A DNA stretch of 64,000 bases from Candidatus Pollutiaquabacter aromativorans (lineage in GTDB: Bacteria > Bacteroidota > Bacteroidia > AKYH767-A > 2013-40CM-41-45). Shown here piece by piece: positions 4,644 through 61,944 of the stretch (position 1 is its first letter; the number at the start of each line of letters is the position of its first letter). The stretch is from the NCBI GenBank assembly GCA_049177215.1, contig CP185379.1, positions 203,046 through 267,045 of the forward strand. The letters are read 5' to 3'. Position numbers and translations under genes: made by a program. Under the pieces are notes generated by a model. It ran no database searches. It worked only from the letters and a program-made list of their open reading frames with translations, and had not been told where the DNA came from.

Positions 4644-7571
4644 ATGAAGAAGATTCTTTTCAGCTTATTCGCCTGTCTCTCATTCCAGGCCAACGCCCAG
4701 GTCGACCTCGCCCGCCATGTTGATCCGTTCATCGGGACAGGGGGCCATGGTCATACCTATCCCGGTGCGACCCTGCCTTTCGGAATGGTGCAGTTAAGCC
4801 CCGATACGCGCGTTGATGGTTCCTGGGATGGTTGCGGCGGTTACCATCATTCGGATTCCATGATGTATGGATTTTCTCATACCCATTTGAGCGGGACCGG
4901 ATGCTCGGATTATGGCGATATCCTGCTGCTGCCGTATGTCAACAAGTTAGATGGAACCCCGATCCAGCCCGTGCGATTTTCACACGCGGATGAATTGGCG
5001 GAACCGGGATACTACAGCGTGGATCTTCCGACTGTAGGTGTCAAAACCGAATTTACCACCACCGTGCGAGTCGGGTTTCATCGTTATGCTTTCAATGGCG
5101 TTGGTGAACACCGGGTCCTGCTGGACCTGCGCCATCGTGATAAAGTCCTTGGTGCGGAAATGCGGATGGTCAGCGATAGACGAATTGAAGGCTATCGGCG
5201 CTCTTCCGCCTGGGCGAGGGATCAGGTCGTCTATTTCTCCATGGAGTTTTCTCGGCCATTCGAACTGATCGATCTCCCGGGCAACGAAACAGCTCCCGAT
5301 AGTTTGCACTACACATTGCGCTTTAAAGAAGACAAATCAAACGAACTCCTGGTGAAGGTCGCCCTTTCTTCCGTGAGCGAAGCCAACGCCCGAATGAACC
5401 TTGAGCGCGAGTTGCCGGGCTGGGATTTCGTCGCGACGAAAAGCGCGGCACGCGCTGCCTGGAACCGGGAGTTGGGTAAGATCGAAGCAAAGGGAGGAAG
5501 TGAAAAGCAACTCCGGATTTTCTACACGGCCCTCTACCATACCATGATCGTCCCCAACGTCTATTCCGATGTAGATGGTCGCTATCGTGGTCGTGATGGT
5601 CAGGTGCATGCCATTGATGGGCCGGAACAATACACGGTTTTCTCGTTGTGGGACACTTACCGGGCATGGCATCCCTTGATGACGATTATCGACCGGAAGC
5701 GAACTACGGCTTATGTGAACACGTTTCTCCGGCAGTACAGGGAAGGCGGATTATTACCCGTCTGGGAGTTGTCCGCGAATGAGACCGAATGCATGATCGG
5801 TTATCACGCGGTGCCGGTGATTGCCGATGCCGACGCGAAGGGTATCGGCGGTTTTGACCGCATGCAGGCCCTGATGGCCATGCGTAAAAGCGCTGAAGCC
5901 AAAGAACGCTACGGCCTCGGGGCTTACATGAAACATGCGATGCTCTCCCTGGACGATGAGCATGAGTCGGTTTCCAAGACGCTGGAGTATGCATATGATG
6001 ATTGGTGCATTGCCACCATGGCGCAACGGCTTGGTCAGGGGCCGTTGGCGCAGCAGTATTTCGAACGATCGCAATCCTGGAAGAACCTGCTGAACCCGGT
6101 CACCGGTTTTATGCAACCCCGGGTTAACGGTGGGTGGTTGTCTCCCTTCGATCCGTATGAAGTCAACAATAATTTTACCGAGGCGAACTCCTGGCAATAT
6201 TCGTTTTATGTTCCGCAGGATATTCCCGGGTTGATGCGGATACACGGAGGAATGGAGCGATTCGCAGCACGACTGGATTCGCTTTTCGCTGCTGATAACC
6301 GGACCCGGGGTCGGGAACAGGCCGATATCACCGGACTGATCGGACAATATGCACACGGGAACGAGCCGAGTCATCACATGGCTTACCTCTACAATTATTG
6401 CGGTCAACCCTGGAAGACACAGCGATTGGTGCGCAAGATCATGGATGAGTTCTATCAGGCTTCCCCCGATGGATTGATCGGCAATGAGGATTGTGGCCAA
6501 ATGTCGGCCTGGCTGGTGTTCAGCGCGATGGGATTTTATCCCGTGACACCCGGAGCTCCCTACTATGCGATCGGTACGCCCTGGTTTCAGGAGGTGACGA
6601 TCCATCTCGAGGATGGTAAGTCGTTTGTTGTTCGTGCCGACGAGCCTTCGGCGAGCCGCTGTTATATTCAGTCTCTCGAGGTGAACGGTCAGGTGCGAAA
6701 CACGGCCTTTCTTTCGCACGAAGAACTGTCCAAAGGCGGTTCCATGAGTTTTACCCTGAGTGACCGCCCGGCATCGAATTGGGGAACTGGAACGTGGTCG
6801 CACCCTGAAGTCGCAGTGGATTCATCGATCGTCATTAATCCGGTGATCCATACGAATGGAAAGTTGCTGCGCGATTCCATGACGATCAGTATCAGTGCCG
6901 CAGCCGGTGATACGATCCTCTACTCAGTGGATGGGGTCGACCTTGAAAAGAAGTGGTCGGGTCCCGGACCCACACGCTCGGGCTTGCGTACTTACACGGG
7001 CCCCTTCACCGTGAAAGAAGCGACCACGGTACAGTCAATGGCCGTTCGTGGAAACCGTTTCAGCCGTGTCGTACGCGCCGAGGTCCAGCCGTATCCGCAT
7101 CCGGACTGGAAGGTGGCTGTTGCTACCGAAGTCAACCCGCAGTATACGGCAGGAGGTCCGGAAGGAATTATCGATGGGATCAGGGGGACGACCAACTGGC
7201 GAAAAGGGGATTGGCAAGGTTATCAGGGCGCCGACTTTGAAGCCGTGATTGATTTCGGTAAGCCCATGCCGGTGCGTGAACTCGGCGGCGGCTTCCTGCA
7301 GGATATGCGCTCCTGGATCCTGATGCCCAAGTCGGTCGAATTCCAGTTATCGGACGATGGCAAGACTTATAAGACCGTATTGACCGTTACAAATTCGCTT
7401 TCCGATCGACTGGAGGAGAATGTCCTGCATGATTTCGAAGGACATATTCCCGTCACTGTTGCCCGTTACTTGAAAGTGAAAGCGGTGAATTATGGACGAT
7501 TGCCCATCTGGCATCCGGGCGCAGGTTATCCTGCGTTCATCTTCGTTGATGAAGTGTGGGCGAATCCCTGA
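4644..7571 (+). CDS. Glycoside hydrolase family 92 alpha-mannosidase with a C-terminal discoidin-like domain
   Basis: 975 aa with a signal peptide. It has the GH92 signature GTGGHGHTYPGATLPFGMVQLSPDT, plus ANSWQYSFYVPQD, NEPSHHMAYLY and GNEDCGQMSAW. The last ~150 aa resemble the F5/8 type C tail at 1..401. Confidence 0.88.
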   Translation: MKKILFSLFACLSFQANAQVDLARHVDPFIGTGGHGHTYPGATLPFGMVQLSPDTRVDGSWDGCGGYHHSDSMMYGFSHTHLSGTGCSDYGDILLLPYVNKLDGTPIQPVRFSHADELAEPGYYSVDLPTVGVKTEFTTTVRVGFHRYAFNGVGEHRVLLDLRHRDKVLGAEMRMVSDRRIEGYRRSSAWARDQVVYFSMEFSRPFELIDLPGNETAPDSLHYTLRFKEDKSNELLVKVALSSVSEANARMNLERELPGWDFVATKSAARAAWNRELGKIEAKGGSEKQLRIFYTALYHTMIVPNVYSDVDGRYRGRDGQVHAIDGPEQYTVFSLWDTYRAWHPLMTIIDRKRTTAYVNTFLRQYREGGLLPVWELSANETECMIGYHAVPVIADADAKGIGGFDRMQALMAMRKSAEAKERYGLGAYMKHAMLSLDDEHESVSKTLEYAYDDWCIATMAQRLGQGPLAQQYFERSQSWKNLLNPVTGFMQPRVNGGWLSPFDPYEVNNNFTEANSWQYSFYVPQDIPGLMRIHGGMERFAARLDSLFAADNRTRGREQADITGLIGQYAHGNEPSHHMAYLYNYCGQPWKTQRLVRKIMDEFYQASPDGLIGNEDCGQMSAWLVFSAMGFYPVTPGAPYYAIGTPWFQEVTIHLEDGKSFVVRADEPSASRCYIQSLEVNGQVRNTAFLSHEELSKGGSMSFTLSDRPASNWGTGTWSHPEVAVDSSIVINPVIHTNGKLLRDSMTISISAAAGDTILYSVDGVDLEKKWSGPGPTRSGLRTYTGPFTVKEATTVQSMAVRGNRFSRVVRAEVQPYPHPDWKVAVATEVNPQYTAGGPEGIIDGIRGTTNWRKGDWQGYQGADFEAVIDFGKPMPVRELGGGFLQDMRSWILMPKSVEFQLSDDGKTYKTVLTVTNSLSDRLEENVLHDFEGHIPVTVARYLKVKAVNYGRLPIWHPGAGYPAFIFVDEVWANP

Positions 7572-7660: not shown

Positions 7661-8254
7661 ATGAAACGTATTCTATTCCTTGCAGTGGCCGTTGTTTCGC
7701 TGCTTACCGCCTGCAGTCCTGATCTGCACCTCGACATTTCAAAACGCCGCTATCGTAAGGGCTTTCACGTTGATGCCGGCATCGGGCACCGTCAAAGCGT
7801 TACGGCTGAACGTCAGGTTGAACAAACGGCAAAGATGCCGGTGATCGTCTCTGCCTTACCGCAAGCGCAAAATGAGCCGCTCGTCGAGCAACACTATTCT
7901 GTTCCTGTTGTTGAAGCACAGCCTCCGGTAGTCGCCTCGAACGAAACCGTGACGCAGGTGAAGCATACCCGTTCAACCCCGGCAGCGGTTGATGCAACCT
8001 CAACTTTGTTTGCGAAAGAACAGTCGGTGCAATCCGCTTCCAAATTTCAGCAAGTGAAGCAGGCGGCTAAACGCTTTTTCCATCCGCAGGAAGATGTGCC
8101 GTTCTGGCTGCTCATCGTATTGTGCATTCTCCTTCCTCCGCTTGCGGTTTTCCTCAAGTTCGGAATCGGAACAGAGTTTTGGATCAGTCTTATCCTAACC
8201 CTGATCTTCTGGCTGCCCGGCGTGATCTACGCGCTGATTGTCGTTACGCGTTGA
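7661..8254 (+). CDS. Lipoprotein-signal protein with a C-terminal YqaE/Pmp3-type proteolipid domain
   Basis: 197 aa. It has a lipobox (LLTAC). The C-terminal ~55 aa (FWLLIVLCILLPPLAVFLKFGIGTEFWISLILTLIFWLPGVIYALIVV) match the UPF0057/Pmp3 two-TM pattern. Confidence 0.55.
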   Translation: MKRILFLAVAVVSLLTACSPDLHLDISKRRYRKGFHVDAGIGHRQSVTAERQVEQTAKMPVIVSALPQAQNEPLVEQHYSVPVVEAQPPVVASNETVTQVKHTRSTPAAVDATSTLFAKEQSVQSASKFQQVKQAAKRFFHPQEDVPFWLLIVLCILLPPLAVFLKFGIGTEFWISLILTLIFWLPGVIYALIVVTR

Positions 8255-56328: not shown

Positions 56329-57054
56329 ATGTTGAACGGAATCATTTTGCAGATCAGCCAATCGACGGGTTCGATCGCCGACTCGGCGGCTACCGCCAGT
56401 ACGACCGTCCCCACCCTCCCTACGCCGTCTCAGTCAATCTCGCTGTGGGAGATGGCCGAAAAAGGCGGCCCGATCCTGATCCCCATCGCGATCCTGTCGA
56501 TCGCTGCCTTGTATATCTTCTTCGAACGGTATTTCACCATCAAGAAGAATTCCAAGATCGACATGAACTTCATGAATCAGATCCGCGACTACGTGCACAA
56601 TGGCAACATCGATGCCGCCAAGGCGCTCTGTAAAAACACCAACACCCCGGTGGCCCGCATGATCGAGAAGGGTCTGATGCGCCTCGGGAAGCCGGTGAAG
56701 GAGATCGAAGGAGCCATCGAAAACGTGGCCAAGCTCGAAATCTACAAGATGGAGAACAACATGAACGTACTGGGTACCATCTCCGGTATCGCCCCGATGT
56801 TCGGATTCCTCGGAACGATTTTTGGCGTGATCAAGATCTTCTATCAGATCGCCCTGCAAAACAGTCTTGAGATCAACGCCATCTCCGGCGGTTTGTATGT
56901 GAAGATGATCTCCTCGGCAGCCGGTCTGCTCGTAGGTATGATCGCGTACGCCTGTTATCACTACCTGGTGTACATGATCGACCGTGTCATCAACAAAATG
57001 GAGATCAACGCTGTCCAGTTCATCGACCTGCTGGAAGAACCCGTGAAAGGATAA
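56329..57054 (+). CDS. exbB: MotA/TolQ/ExbB proton-channel protein
   Basis: 241 aa with three TM segments and the conserved GTISGIAPMFGFLGTIFGVI block. Confidence 0.85.
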   Translation: MLNGIILQISQSTGSIADSAATASTTVPTLPTPSQSISLWEMAEKGGPILIPIAILSIAALYIFFERYFTIKKNSKIDMNFMNQIRDYVHNGNIDAAKALCKNTNTPVARMIEKGLMRLGKPVKEIEGAIENVAKLEIYKMENNMNVLGTISGIAPMFGFLGTIFGVIKIFYQIALQNSLEINAISGGLYVKMISSAAGLLVGMIAYACYHYLVYMIDRVINKMEINAVQFIDLLEEPVKG

Positions 57055-57087
57055 GGTCGCAGTTCCGGATCTCCGACAACCACTACC

Positions 57088-57492
57088 ATGAACTTCCGCA
57101 GAAGAAACCGACTCGTCGGCGAAGTGTACACCGCTTCGTTGAACGATATCATGTTCTTTCTCCTGCTCTTCTTCCTGATCACCTCTACGCTGGCAACGCC
57201 GAACGTACTGAAGCTCCTGCTTCCGTCGGCCAAGAGCAGCAGCCAGAGCGTCAAGCACCCCTTGACCATTTCGGTGACAGCGGATCTGCAGTATGCCATC
57301 AACAATACGCCGGTTCCGGCGGATCAGCTGGAAGCGGCGATCGAACAGGCCATCAAAGGCCAGCCCGACCCGACCGCGCTGCTGAAAGTCGACAAGACCG
57401 TCCAGGTTCAGAATCTGGTCGACCTGCTCGATATCGGCAACCGGAAAAAAGTGAAAATGGTGCTTGCCACCCAAACCTCCAAGCAGCAGTAA
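57088..57492 (+). CDS. exbD: Biopolymer transport protein ExbD/TolR
   Basis: 134 aa. The N-terminal block ASLNDIMFFLLLFFLIT and the single-TM topology are typical of ExbD. Confidence 0.85.
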   Translation: MNFRRRNRLVGEVYTASLNDIMFFLLLFFLITSTLATPNVLKLLLPSAKSSSQSVKHPLTISVTADLQYAINNTPVPADQLEAAIEQAIKGQPDPTALLKVDKTVQVQNLVDLLDIGNRKKVKMVLATQTSKQQ

Positions 57493-58338
57493 ATGGCTAC
57501 GGAAGCCGGCATTCGTTCGCGCTCCATCCTCATTTCCGTACTCGTACACGGGTTGTTGTTTCTCATCCTGTTGTTTACGGTCATGTCGACACCCATTCCT
57601 CCTTTTCCTGAAACAGGAGGCGGAGGCGGAGTGATCGTGAACATCGGCTACGTGGACGAAGCGAGTGGAGAAGTGCAACCCATGTCGCCGAATACCACGG
57701 AGGATCCCAATCTGTCGGCTTCGGTCCCTGTCCCTTCGCCGGACGAACAGTTCGCGACGCAGGAGATCGAAGAGTCGCCAATTGCCAAAGAGAAACCCGA
57801 CCCGGCCAAGACCATTCCCAAGACACCCCGCGAGACGACGCCGAAGACCCAGCCGGTGAAAACGGAACCGGTTCGCGTGGTGGACAGCCGTGCTTTGTAT
57901 AAAGGTCCGAAGACCGGTACCGGCAACCAGGGTACCGGTCAGGGCACCGGTGATCAGGGCGACCCAACGGGTGATCCGAATTCGAAGTACTACGGCAAGG
58001 GCAGTGGTACCGGTGGAGGAGAAGGCGGTGGCGACGGAAAAGGTACCGGCGGTGGTAAGGGCGATGGATTCTCCTTCGACCTCGCAGGCCGTCGCATGAC
58101 GCGGAAGCCGCAGGTCAACGATCGCTCGCAGGAGACCGGCAAGGTGGTCGTCGAAATTACCGTTGATAAGAATGGACATGTAACCAGCGCCATCCCCGGC
58201 GGTCGTGGTTCTACGACCACCAGCTCGTATCTGTATCGCCTGGCGAAAGAGGCCGCCATGAAAGCCGAATTCAGTCCCAGTCCCGACGGAGCCGATATCC
58301 AGAAGGGGACCATGACCTTCATCTTCCTCGTACAATAA
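57493..58338 (+). CDS. TonB-like energy transducer (second copy, Gly/Pro-rich linker)
   Basis: 281 aa. It has a TM anchor, a Pro/Gly-rich linker, and a C-terminal GKVVVEITVDKNGHVTSA...KAEFSPSPDGADIQKGTMTFIF TonB-C-like domain. Its start codon directly follows the exbD stop codon (TAA at 57490-57492, ATG at 57493). Confidence 0.7.
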   Translation: MATEAGIRSRSILISVLVHGLLFLILLFTVMSTPIPPFPETGGGGGVIVNIGYVDEASGEVQPMSPNTTEDPNLSASVPVPSPDEQFATQEIEESPIAKEKPDPAKTIPKTPRETTPKTQPVKTEPVRVVDSRALYKGPKTGTGNQGTGQGTGDQGDPTGDPNSKYYGKGSGTGGGEGGGDGKGTGGGKGDGFSFDLAGRRMTRKPQVNDRSQETGKVVVEITVDKNGHVTSAIPGGRGSTTTSSYLYRLAKEAAMKAEFSPSPDGADIQKGTMTFIFLVQ

Positions 58339-58381
58339 CCCGCTTCGGGTAGGGGAATCCTTCTTTTCTTTGTTGCCGGCT

Positions 58382-59687
58382 ATGACCTATCCCGAGGTCC
58401 TCGACTACCTGTATTCCTGTCTCCCGATGTTTCATCGGGTTGGCGCGGTGGCCTACAAGGCTAACCTGGACAACACACACCACCTGATGGAATTGCTGGA
58501 CCATCCCGAGCAGGGATTCCGTTCAGTGCACGTGGCAGGAACGAACGGTAAGGGCTCCAGTTCGCATATGCTGGCAGCGGTTCTGCAGGCCGCCGGTTAC
58601 AAGACCGGTCTGTATACATCGCCGCACTTACTCGACTTTCGTGAGCGCATCCGTGTCAACGGTGGCATGGTTCCGGAGGAGGTGGTGACCGGATTCGTTC
58701 AAGCTCACCGCGCCGCTTTCGATCGCATCCAGCCTTCTTTCTTTGAATGGACGGTAGCCCTGGCGTTCGATTATTTCAGGAACGAACAGGTCGACATCGC
58801 CATCATCGAGACCGGCTTAGGCGGTCGGTTGGACTCTACCAATGTGATTACTCCGGAAGTGGCACTCATCACCAACATCGGTTGGGACCACATGAATTTG
58901 CTGGGTGACACCCTGGAGAAGATCGCGGCGGAAAAGGCCGGTATCATTAAACCGGGAGTGCCGGTGATCATCAGCGAAGGTCAGCTTGAAACCATCCATG
59001 TCCTTACATCCGCGGCTCAGCGCGCCGGTTCAAACAGCTGCGTTGCGGATCAGGAGTACAAGGTTGAAGCGATTGGAGGAGATGGGCGCGACCTGAACGT
59101 GTCGGTCGAGCGTGAAGGTGCGGTGCAGGTGCATTATACAATCGGATTGCCGGGTCGGTACCAGACCAAGAATGTCGCGGGTGTTTTAGCGACGATCGAT
59201 CGTTTACGCGAGAATGGGCTGGAAGATACCGGAGGCTGCAGTCGCGCGCGGATTACGGGATGTCAGGAGTCTGACCGGTTTGATGGGACGCTGGCAGTTG
59301 CTGAAAGAACAACCGAAGGTGATCGCGGATGTAGGTCACAACCTTGATGGCATTCGGGAGATCCTCCTACAATTGGAGCATGAAAATCATACGGACTTAC
59401 ACTGGGTGATCGGTGTGGTTGAAGACAAAGACCTTTCGGGCATTCTACCCTTGTTGCCTGCCGCAGCCACTTACTACTGTTGCAAACCGGACTTGCCCAG
59501 AGGACGTGATGCGGCATCCCTGTGCCAGGCACTACGCGAACACGGACTTCGCGCAGAAGCCTATCCAAGCGTAGCCCTGGCCTTAGCCTCCGCCATGCGA
59601 TCGGCGAACGAGCGGGATCTCATACTCATCGCCGGCAGCACCTTTGTAGTAGCGGAGGCGATGAAGGCTGTAGTTGCAAGCTTATGA
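58382..59687 (+). pseudogene. folC: Bifunctional folylpolyglutamate synthase/dihydrofolate synthase FolC, reading frame interrupted by an apparent 1-nt insertion
   Basis: ORF 58370..59347 carries the Mur-ligase N-terminus and middle (HVAGTNGKGSSSHMLA, TSPHL, ETGLGGRLDSTN) up to ...LRENG. ORF 59214..59687 continues with IPEAAVARGLRDVRSLTGLMGRWQLL...DVGHNLDGI. The frames switch within 59216-59227, and removing one G from GGG (59216-59218) gives ...RENGWKIPEAAV.... Confidence 0.85.
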
Positions 59688-59751
59688 GGTAAAAAAAATT
59701 GATTAATAACCGAACTGAATGCTCGAATTTCCTTTAACCTCAAACACCTTT

Positions 59752-59798
59752 GTTGACTCTTTCAGAATGCGTCAACAATAAATTTGGACAAATTTATT
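59752..59798 (-). terminator. Two adjacent stem-loops downstream of the AT-rich three-gene operon
   Basis: aataaattt-ggac-aaatttatt lies at 59777-59798 and gttgac-N13-gtcaac at 59752-59776. There is no clean U-tract. Confidence 0.45.
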
Positions 59799-59804
59799 GT
59801 AATA

Positions 59805-60323
59805 CTACTTGACAGAATCATTTATTTCAGCAATCAATCTTTCCACATTAGCCATGTCAACGTCGACTCTTGAGTTTTGTACAGCAATTTCGTGCAATTT
59901 AAGTGCAAACTCAGGTAAATCTAAATCAGTGTAGCTGTTGGGAACAATAATACAATGTGCAAGATTTTCGGGTTTGCCAATTTTGTTTGTGAAATATATT
60001 TTATCCTCATAAATACCATCTACTAATTCAAGTGACAGCACATTCTCTTTAGGTAAAGAATAAATTAATCTCTGTTTGACATCCTTAAATTCGGTTTTCC
60101 CTTGCCTATACTGCGAGCCACAAACTGCTAGAGTCTTTTCTGCACTATGTACTTCACCATCGTCTACCGACAATCCATCTTCACCAGGTTTTAGCTGAAA
60201 ATCTCTTATAAGGGGCAGTTCTTTTTCGGATTTGCCAGAATGTAATATGCAAATTCTATATACTACTCCTATTTTCCCAATTGATATTCTTGAAGAGGGA
60301 GCGAAAGATTTTCCTTCAGCCAT
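59805..60323 (-). CDS. Hypothetical protein, third gene of the AT-rich orphan operon
   Basis: 172-aa ORF with an ATG start, AT-rich codon usage and no motif I can assign. Its 5' end overlaps the preceding ORF by 55 nt in another frame. Confidence 0.55.
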   Translation of the reverse strand: MAEGKSFAPSSRISIGKIGVVYRICILHSGKSEKELPLIRDFQLKPGEDGLSVDDGEVHSAEKTLAVCGSQYRQGKTEFKDVKQRLIYSLPKENVLSLELVDGIYEDKIYFTNKIGKPENLAHCIIVPNSYTDLDLPEFALKLHEIAVQNSRVDVDMANVERLIAEINDSVK

Positions 60324-60955
60324 ACTATGAAATGTGATGTTAAGGTATCAGTTTTAATACCACCTTTATAGGGGATCTTTTGACTATCCTCGCCGTAAAA
60401 ATAAGCAGTATTTGAATTTGATTTAATTACTAGTAGCAGCTTTGCAGAGCTAGTACTCCAATGCAAATTTAAACCTGCATAAGGGTTTACCTCAATCGAA
60501 GGCTCAATCAACAAATAACCATATTTTTCATAAATAGATTTTGCAAAATTGTTAAGTAAGACTTTAGTATCCTCCGCCAGTTTGATGTCGACAGTAAGGT
60601 ATTCATCGTCTTCACTTTGTTTTTTTACAGACTCAACTTTTTCTTTAACTTTTTCGATGAAGGGAGTAAGTTCTGGAATGAAATCTAAATTGATTAGATT
60701 AGTTAAGCTTAAATACTTTAAAGTACTTGCTAGACTTTGTATATTGTCATTAGATCCATCGTTAAAATTAATTTGCGTAATCCGATCGTTTCTTATTGAA
60801 TCAACCTTTTGTGACCAATTTTTCAAGATTGACTCATCTATTTTTAAAACAAGCTTGTGTTTTCTTGTAGAGGTTGAGCGACTGCTGCTTCTGAAAAAAG
60901 TTCGTGGCTTATCTTTTGTATAGCAGGCCTTGATGTATTTATAACTAGTATTCAT
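60269..60955 (-). CDS. Hypothetical protein, second gene of the AT-rich orphan operon
   Basis: 228-aa ORF with an ATG start. It has a basic Ser/Arg/Lys-rich N-terminus (KDKPRTFFRSSSRSTSTRKHK) and no recognised domain. It overlaps the upstream ORF by 11 nt. Confidence 0.6.
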   Translation of the reverse strand: MNTSYKYIKACYTKDKPRTFFRSSSRSTSTRKHKLVLKIDESILKNWSQKVDSIRNDRITQINFNDGSNDNIQSLASTLKYLSLTNLINLDFIPELTPFIEKVKEKVESVKKQSEDDEYLTVDIKLAEDTKVLLNNFAKSIYEKYGYLLIEPSIEVNPYAGLNLHWSTSSAKLLLVIKSNSNTAYFYGEDSQKIPYKGGIKTDTLTSHFIVWLKENLSLPLQEYQLGK

Positions 60956-61628
60956 ATTTAGAACTTTTATAGTCTATAAAATTAACTCTAGGTGCTATAG
61001 AATTATTCTTAATCAGTGTTTCTTTTAGCTCAGCTCTTATTATTGCGTCTTTCAATTTCCTTAAATCTGATAAGGTCATGTTTAAGTCAATCTGTGCATC
61101 ACTTCCGCATTCGTCATATGAAATGGTGAGTTGATGATTAATTATACCGTATCTAGGTTCGATTTCAATATTAGAATCGAAAACTAGTCTTACATCACTA
61201 AAGATTGTAGCGTCTTGAAAAACGCATTTATATGAAGTTCTCAGTTTTTCAATCTTAAGTGTTGTTTGAATATTTTTGTCTGAACTGAGTAGTGTTTTTA
61301 GATTTGTTTCTAATCGATGAACATCAGTTTCGTTCATGTCAGGATACATCTCGGTGCATGCTGACATCAGTTGATGTAATAATTCATCGGTTAGTTCACC
61401 TTTTTTTATGTCTTGCCAAATTAGACTAAAAACAACATCTGAAATTGCAGCAGAATCTTCGGTGCTTAATCCGGTTTGGTTTGAAATAATTATTGATACA
61501 TCTTCATGATGGGCACCTATCGGGGCTGTTGATAATACTAATGCAATTTTGGTTACTTGCTCGATGTTGAGTTTGAGTAATAAATCGAATCCTAGCTTGT
61601 AAGTTTCTGGAATTTGAATCTCGTCCAT
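60945..61628 (-). CDS. Hypothetical protein, first gene of the AT-rich orphan operon
   Basis: 227-aa ORF with an ATG start. It is acidic, with no signal peptide, no TM segment and no recognised domain. Confidence 0.6.
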   Translation of the reverse strand: MDEIQIPETYKLGFDLLLKLNIEQVTKIALVLSTAPIGAHHEDVSIIISNQTGLSTEDSAAISDVVFSLIWQDIKKGELTDELLHQLMSACTEMYPDMNETDVHRLETNLKTLLSSDKNIQTTLKIEKLRTSYKCVFQDATIFSDVRLVFDSNIEIEPRYGIINHQLTISYDECGSDAQIDLNMTLSDLRKLKDAIIRAELKETLIKNNSIAPRVNFIDYKSSKYEY

Positions 61629-61830
61629 AGGTAGATTGTGGAATTATACTATTATGTACGTGCCGTATTGGATAGATATTCACCAATATCATGAAATAAT
61701 TGACAGGATAGTGTCTAATTATAGGCGTTTCAAACTGAAAAGTGACATGTAAATTGGATTCCATGTCAACGAGACAATCAAAATGTTGATTATGAGCCAG
61801 TTGAAAATATGGATTAAGCAGATTCCCCTA

Positions 61831-61860
61831 TAAAAAAAGAACCCACCGCAAGGGTGGGTT
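61831..61860 (-). terminator. Rho-independent terminator downstream of tRNA-Val
   Basis: The 8-bp stem aacccacc / ggtgggtt has loop gcaag and is followed on the minus strand by cttttttt. Confidence 0.75.
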
Positions 61861-61869
61861 TCCGTTTTG

Positions 61870-61944
61870 TGGGAGCAACAGGGTTCGAACCTGTGACCCT
61901 CTGCTTGTAAGGCAGATGCTCTGAACCAGCTGAGCTATGCTCCC
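61870..61944 (-). tRNA. tRNA-Val (anticodon TAC)
   Basis: I folded it by hand as GGGAGCA-TA-GCTC-AGCTGGTTCA-GAGC-A-TCTGC-CTTACAA-GCAGA-GGGTC-ACAGG-TTCGAAC-CCTGT-TGCTCCC-A. It is 75 nt. Confidence 0.88.

Follow-up and report, generated by a model that had tools for sequence, protein, structure and literature searches.

Between the folC gene and a tRNA-Val(TAC) gene of Candidatus Pollutiaquabacter aromativorans (Bacteroidota; GenBank assembly GCA_049177215.1, contig CP185379.1, positions 203,046 to 267,045), an AT-rich block of 2.1 kb carries three tightly coupled genes, here called A, B and C. The whole 64-kb stretch of DNA that was analysed is referred to as the window, and coordinates without a locus name are those of the window, in which the block occupies 59690-61835. 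All three genes are read from the minus strand: gene A (60945-61628, 227 aa) comes first, gene B (60269-60955, 228 aa) second and gene C (59805-60323, 172 aa) last, with overlaps of 11 nt and 55 nt between neighbouring frames. These coordinates agree with an earlier annotation made from the letters alone (the original prediction), which described the block as an orphan operon and a candidate defence or toxin module. Judged by its sequence, gene A is a full-length homologue of a bacterial COMMD-like ring protein whose structure has been solved. Gene B stands in an antitoxin-like position and is a candidate neutraliser or adaptor, and gene C stands in a toxin-like position and is a candidate effector.

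The base composition of the block is far from that of its surroundings, with a G+C content of 33.4% against a mean of 55.7% (sd 2.1, minimum 49.7) in 288 other stretches of the same length, which corresponds to z = -10.4 relative to the rest of the window. The change is as abrupt as had been described, since it falls no more than about 100 nt from the folC stop at one border and at the tRNA terminator at the other. The block is therefore compositionally foreign, and its horizontal acquisition is supported. Because the tRNA-Val gene lies at 61869-61944 (minus strand; detected by ARAGORN and by the Rfam tRNA model at 73.8 bits) and is followed by a terminator-like hairpin with a T-run at 61840-61860 (minus strand), where G+C falls from about 0.56 to about 0.35, the block abuts the 3' side of the tRNA, the 3' end of which forms the upstream border of the insert. 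This adjacency, also predicted, is the only feature shared with tRNA-targeted integrative islands. No integrase-like open reading frame (ORF) is found in or beside the block, judged from the ORF list (the family libraries were searched with A, B and C only), and direct repeats of at least 18 nt are absent from its flanks; in both respects, including the lack of a repeated tRNA 3' end, the first description was accurate.

The COMMD-like protein and its partner families

Structures of prokaryotic COMMD-like proteins were first reported in 2026, when the proteins were presented as ancestors of the core of the eukaryotic Commander complex (Liu et al., Nat Commun 2026, PMC13392464). One of them, MBK5214510 from a Flavobacteriaceae bacterium (PDB 9q6a, 9q6c and 9q6d), forms octameric and decameric rings built of COMM-domain dimers. 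The function of these proteins was left open by the authors, and gene context was studied for Myxococcota, Chlamydia and Halobacteria only, being related to secretion or resembling a type VI secretion system in the Myxococcota (PMC13392464). Gene A of the window matches the crystallised protein (9q6a_A, 'COMMD-like protein MBK5214510') with a phmmer E value of 8.9e-16 and 28% identity, and its residues 5-218 align with residues 24-237 of the solved chain, so that the two proteins share their size, their full length and their layout, in which a helical HN domain precedes a COMM domain. The COMM-domain part of A (approximately residues 137-210; 60999-61220, minus strand), as delimited by alignment to 9q6a and 77 family members, carries the family motif SDVRLVFD...GIINHQL. 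Gene A has the three residues that never vary across the COMMD-like family (P7, D145 and R147) and the three that hardly do (F150, H165 and L167), and it therefore combines the two-domain layout of about 220 aa with the conserved positions. From its homology to the solved protein, the protein encoded in the window would be expected to assemble into rings of 8 or 10 subunits.

The family to which A belongs is large. In an exhaustive HMMER search over clusters formed at 50% identity, at least 1,063 reach E <= 1e-3 and 143 of them E <= 1e-10. No relative among the 150 listed exceeds 33% identity to A, and nearly all are 209-240 aa long and align from end to end, the exceptions being two shorter fragments and one protein of 273 aa; members of the family reach 48% identity to the crystallised protein. 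Comparison of A with the Pfam COMM_domain (PF07258) gives no match, and only four of 78 family members show a trace of it (best E = 0.03), which fits the published identity of less than 20% between these proteins and eukaryotic COMMDs. None of the three proteins has a significant match in Pfam, NCBIfam, PHROGs or PADLOC. A word-indexed search of 5.8 billion clusters, which found only the proteins themselves and a 97% identical variant of B, falsely suggested that the genes are orphans, an impression overturned for A by the exhaustive search. At the level of families the description as orphans is wrong, since relatives exist for each of the three genes, and A carries a recognisable signature as a COMMD-like protein with a solved homologue. 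The loose hints of a HEPN domain noted earlier dissolve in the same way. The string RYGIINH in A lies within a conserved strand of the COMM domain, the histidine of which is the nearly invariant H165, whereas only the arginine of RICILH in C is conserved across the C family and the histidine is not; scans of family libraries gave no HEPN match for any of the three proteins.

Gene B has an N-terminal region of about 90-120 aa that is not conserved and, after it, a C-terminal domain of about 110 aa that is. According to the family alignments this domain spans approximately residues 125-222 of the window protein (60290-60583, minus strand); in the family it carries the motif DDWDxxGA...P.I..DGS..L.W..LLI. 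With phmmer, B matches the second gene of related trios at 1.2e-11 (L085), 5.7e-9 (L086) and 1e-7 (L091), and C matches the third gene at 2.1e-19 (L091) and 3e-16 (L084). In a 12-sequence alignment of the C family P37, S52 and H123 are invariant and R23 and N120 are conserved in at least 90% of members, within the motif R...LS.DW...N.AH[SCA]; its most conserved part, N.AH[SCA], corresponds to codons N120-H123 (N-L-A-H) at 59955-59966 (minus strand). The B family profile finds nothing among PDB sequences or in Pfam, and a single-sequence AlphaFold2 model of B is unusable, with a predicted local distance difference test score (pLDDT) of 31.6.

The C-terminal domain of B also occurs by itself, as a 120-aa ORF (L114:4995-5357, profile E = 1.3e-22) on a very AT-rich viral contig of 310 kb that resembles a jumbo phage (IMGVR_UViG_3300017917_001524). 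No COMMD-like or C-family gene lies within 5 kb of it. If the domain neutralises C, this solitary copy could, speculatively, be a decoy carried by a phage.

The trio, its exchangeable pair and its genomic settings

Loci related to the block were collected from metagenomes, with nine further representatives added by exact look-up, and were counted as independent loci with a COMMD-like gene and readable downstream sequence. Wherever enough downstream DNA is available, two further ORFs of approximately 170-250 aa and 120-210 aa come after the COMMD-like gene on the same strand, in an abutting or overlapping arrangement. In 15 of the 18 independent loci these are B and C in the same order as in the window; one locus holds A and B before its contig ends, and in two a different pair follows A. 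With profiles built from the first eight trios, the ORFs of later loci are recognised as B (3e-30 to 3e-49) and C (4e-14 to 1e-51). The same A, B and C trio is headed by the protein P0050 (locus L111), which is 45% identical to crystallised MBK5214510. The reciprocal test gives the same picture: when an alignment of B only is searched against viral contigs, both contigs with a full-length B also carry A upstream (1e-44 and 5e-34) and C downstream (1e-38 and 1e-46). These arrangements show that A, B and C travel as a unit.

The loci with other partners bear on what B and C may be. The COMMD-like gene of L106/L107 overlaps an ORF of 170 aa that has the toxin-binding Xre_MbcA_ParS_C domain (PF09722, E = 5.8e-5; at 23.4 bits the score in L106 is just below the Pfam cut-off of 24.5 bits), and the third gene encodes a 207-aa RES protein (PF08808, E = 1.5e-14). 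In L095 the COMMD-like gene precedes a coiled-coil protein and then a DUF7689 protein (E = 5.4e-32). By their domain assignments the partner genes in L106/L107 are a recognised antitoxin-toxin pair, and because an antitoxin and a RES toxin hold the second and third positions there, B can be assigned to a putative neutraliser slot and C to a putative effector slot. The window cassette thus resembles type II toxin-antitoxin (TA) systems of the Xre/MbcA/ParS-RES kind in being small and tightly coupled, with a proposed neutraliser preceding a proposed toxin, and exactly this pair follows the COMMD-like gene in L106/L107. However, neither the window B nor its family matches an MbcA/ParS domain, and C has no RES match in Pfam. 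Whereas the canonical system has two genes and a helix-turn-helix on the antitoxin, the cassette of the window begins with a COMMD-like gene and contains no helix-turn-helix detectable with Pfam. The possibility that C is a divergent RES protein was rejected by an hhalign comparison of the C family with the RES protein of L106 (probability 0.2%), and hhalign also ruled out a divergent DUF7689.

A three-gene operon of TA type is also found in toxin-antitoxin-chaperone (TAC) systems, in which an oligomeric SecB-like chaperone controls the antitoxin. These systems have no known homology to the cassette, the third component of which is instead a COMMD-like ring protein encoded first, and a chaperone role for A would be an analogy only. 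Just upstream of the trio with MbcA and RES partners lies a second, divergently oriented TA-like pair, consisting of an Unstab_antitox gene (PF09720) and a 73-aa ORF (L106:504-1233; L107:3543-4272).

A further link leads to defence candidates. PDC-M32 (CAS_00128, FAM_01821>>FAM_00608) is one of 145 candidates proposed since such cassettes sit embedded inside known defence systems (Payne et al., bioRxiv 10.1101/2024.01.29.577857). Of eight relatives of B, six match the PADLOC model PDC-M32A (best E = 4.9e-6); of eight relatives of C, four match PDC-M32B, over positions 23-118 of the 123 in that model (best E = 3.1e-6). The two genes of PDC-M32 lie on the same strand in the same order as B and C. 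PDC-M32 differs from the cassette of the window, which is led by a COMMD-like gene, in having no COMMD-like component. The idea that PDC-M32A is a fusion of a COMMD-like domain with the B domain finds no support, as the model is not hit by any of 78 COMMD-like proteins.

The flanks of the trio are unrelated between loci and consist mostly of housekeeping genes (glutamine synthetase, TerC, GH127, NDH-2, PriA and polysaccharide synthesis), the trio of L111 lying within a polysaccharide biosynthesis cluster, and in most loci the G+C content of the trio is below that of its flanks. One complete trio (L113:1-5838; IMGVR_UViG_3300011757_000031) is located 1 kb from a tail tape-measure gene with 52% identity to that of Croceibacter phage P2559S (E = 2e-132), on the strand opposite to the structural genes, like a prophage moron. 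Searches of A, B, C and their relatives against phage and plasmid collections gave no tblastn match, and no relatives of A or C were found in the cultured phages of the GenBank set. The trio of L088 is bracketed by direct repeats of 134 nt with 88% identity (5393-5526 and 7778-7911), and the trios of L096 (34-59 and 2297-2322) and L090 by shorter ones. In L089 the likeness to L088 begins inside the left repeat. The repeats of L096 contain several GC-rich hairpins that resemble repetitive extragenic palindromic (REP) elements or miniature inverted-repeat transposable elements (MITEs), and approximately 700 nt downstream of the trio a 21-nt unit is repeated in tandem about 8-10 times (L096:2853-3062).

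Adjacency to a tRNA does not hold for the family in general. The window block adjoins tRNA-Val, and a tRNA-Lys(ctt) gene lies about 500 nt downstream of the trio in L100 (4366-4439) and L101 (3167-3240), with its terminator region partly duplicated, but most other loci have no nearby tRNA. A tRNA-Ser(gga) gene is found 2.7 kb upstream of the trio in L089 (3258-3346). Comparison of L088 with L089 gives ratios of nonsynonymous to synonymous change (pN/pS) of 0.36 for A, 0.12 for B and 0.25 for C, with 0.12 for a flanking gene, values that show purifying selection in this one pair of related loci.

A toxin-antitoxin or abortive-infection reading and its rivals

In our reading, to which we assign a probability of about 60%, the block is a horizontally acquired, self-contained three-gene cassette of the TA or abortive-infection type. 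In such a cassette C would be the growth-arresting effector and the C-terminal domain of B would hold it inactive, while a ring of A would serve as an organising or sensing platform, perhaps by engaging the variable N-terminal tail of B. A disturbance of the complex, for example by phage infection or by loss of the element, would then release C. The toxicity of C, its neutralisation by B, contacts among A, B and C and an effect against phages are things we only infer. The proposal of a defence or toxin module is partly upheld, with the foreign composition of the block, the unrelated contexts of the trio (a prophage among them), the likeness of B and C relatives to PDC-M32 and the antitoxin and RES genes of L106 in its favour.

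Several observations weigh against this reading. The 18 loci are a small sample of more than 1,000 family clusters and come without exception from among the 150 nearest relatives of A, and their flanks are usually housekeeping genes, not defence islands. Gene C has no recognised toxin fold: profile searches of Pfam and PDB sequences give nothing, its single-sequence AlphaFold2 model is unusable (pLDDT 41.1), and Foldseek with this poor model finds no match at E <= 0.001. The connection to PDC-M32, itself only a candidate, is transitive only, because neither B nor C of the window matches its models at E <= 1. In PDC-M32A, moreover, the relatives of B cover only positions of approximately 264-366 of the 375. 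A PADLOC check of the locus thus draws a blank for the window proteins and finds its matches among relatives of B and C; no COMMD-like protein (0 of 78) matches PDC-M32 and no other PADLOC family was matched consistently. No operator-like repeat is enriched upstream of gene A. In addition, the window B reads EDDEY where the family has DDWD, and it differs from the 97% identical variant by six nonsynonymous and two synonymous changes, which are small counts; this B may be relaxed or decaying.

The cassette could also be a purely selfish, three-part addiction module that stabilises the DNA carrying it by post-segregational killing and has no role against phages, which we regard as improbable. 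The classical antitoxin-domain and RES pair in the variant trio of L106/L107, the copy of the trio on a prophage (L113), the additional TA-type gene (Unstab_antitox) beside the trio of L106 and the flanks that are not defence islands would all suit such a module. However, in the window and at most loci the cassette stands alone among chromosomal housekeeping genes, with no larger element to stabilise, and the candidate with likeness to the B and C relatives was discovered embedded inside defence systems. Many TA systems also abort phage infection, so that an addiction module and a cassette of abortive-infection type overlap. Equally unpromising is a complex outside any conflict, in which a COMMD-like ring and two partners have an ordinary accessory function (e.g. 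regulation or the handling of macromolecules) and the operon merely spreads horizontally. This would agree with the want of a recognised toxin or antitoxin fold in B and C, with the position of L111 inside a polysaccharide biosynthesis cluster and with the Myxococcota context of COMMD-like genes, which was published as secretion-related and not TA-like (PMC13392464). Yet both partner positions are replaced in L106, by an antitoxin-domain and a RES protein, and in L095, by an unrelated pair, and such replacement speaks for conflict systems, of which it is typical, and not for metabolic or structural complexes. Contexts that differ from locus to locus, the moron-like orientation of the prophage copy in L113 and the stand-alone B domain on the 310-kb viral contig likewise count against an ordinary complex.

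A last alternative concerns the window copy itself, which might be a degenerating remnant without present function of a family that may be functional elsewhere. The window proteins are the most divergent seen, A reaching at most 33% identity and B 17-24% within its alignment, and the missing DDWD motif and the six nonsynonymous against two synonymous changes in B point the same way. Nonetheless none of the three frames is broken, either in the window or in three independent metagenome samples, and the gene overlaps are kept; A retains P7, D145 and R147, and C retains P37, S52, H123 and the near-invariant R23. In comparison with the 97% variant, C shows no nonsynonymous and three synonymous changes (again small counts). 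Decay of this kind we hold to be very unlikely.

If the reading as a TA or abortive-infection cassette is right, the trio would provide a new type of third component for TA and defence systems, and it would be the first testable clue to the bacterial role of COMMD-like ring proteins, the function of which had been left open. A COMMD-like gene leads a compact mobile cassette in a lineage that includes close relatives of the crystallised protein, and the other two positions behave like an antitoxin-toxin pair that can be exchanged for a recognised RES module. The trio context is not described in the structural study (PMC13392464), in which toxins, immunity and phage are never mentioned. Full-text searches found no literature linking COMMD or the COMM domain to toxin-antitoxin, anti-phage or conflict systems or to RES, and operons, toxins and phage go unmentioned in the two papers on COMMD-like proteins. 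As far as these searches reach, the trio has not been described before, and the COMMD-like gene is a new third component of a cassette that is TA-like or a defence candidate. The candidate PDC-M32 in turn gains a set of distant relatives, and a possible evolutionary route opens by which bacterial conflict systems could have given rise to a eukaryotic trafficking complex. A bolder generalisation, which we put forward tentatively and would sooner bet against than for, is that COMMD-like rings are the constant sensor or scaffold of widespread tripartite abortive-infection or TA systems with interchangeable neutraliser-effector pairs (B and C, MbcA and RES, or a pair with DUF7689), that the fold of the Commander core began in prokaryotic conflict systems, and that phages counter these systems with solitary B domains.

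Sequence around the cassette

Upstream of gene A lies an AT-rich leader or promoter region (61629-61839, minus strand, 35% G+C). It contains a 7-bp inverted repeat, TGACATG-N12-CATGTCA, and 24% of shuffled sequences reach an equal stem length; an operator-like inverted repeat at this place was rejected for the window and for 18 other loci, being no better than in shuffles. At the other end of the cassette, between the convergent stops of C and folC, two AT-rich inverted repeats adjoin one another (59750-59778 and 59775-59800; no strand assigned). The two stem-loops noted earlier downstream of the third ORF are therefore real as inverted repeats, but their fold across 59750-59800 (-12.3 kcal/mol, z = -0.92) is no better than that of shuffled sequence, which speaks against a strong terminator 3' of C; they are possibly a weak bidirectional one.

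On the downstream side the cassette is flanked by folC (58370-59687, plus strand), which has native composition and matches solved FolC structures (1o5z, E = 4e-47). The gene appears as two overlapping ORFs in different frames, of 325 aa and 157 aa, with an overlap at 59214-59347, and the likeness of the first to solved FolC structures ends near residue 280. Either a frameshift, which would make it a pseudogene, or a sequencing error could explain these two frames beside the insert. The cassette is also present on three short metagenome contigs, and the cassette-bearing metagenome contig L001 (SRR26992859) stops exactly at 61869, the 3' end of tRNA-Val, which fits an assembly branch point at the boundary of the insert. 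In 80 species-level genomes with the neighbouring major facilitator superfamily (MFS) gene (at most 61% identity), neither a folC beside the MFS gene nor the cassette was found. A 633-aa ORF (56434-58335, minus strand) runs antisense to an ORF of 281 aa rich in proline and glycine (57493-58338, plus strand) and is probably an artefact of high G+C content; the last 90 or so residues of the 281-aa ORF show a weak likeness to a stretch of locus L048.

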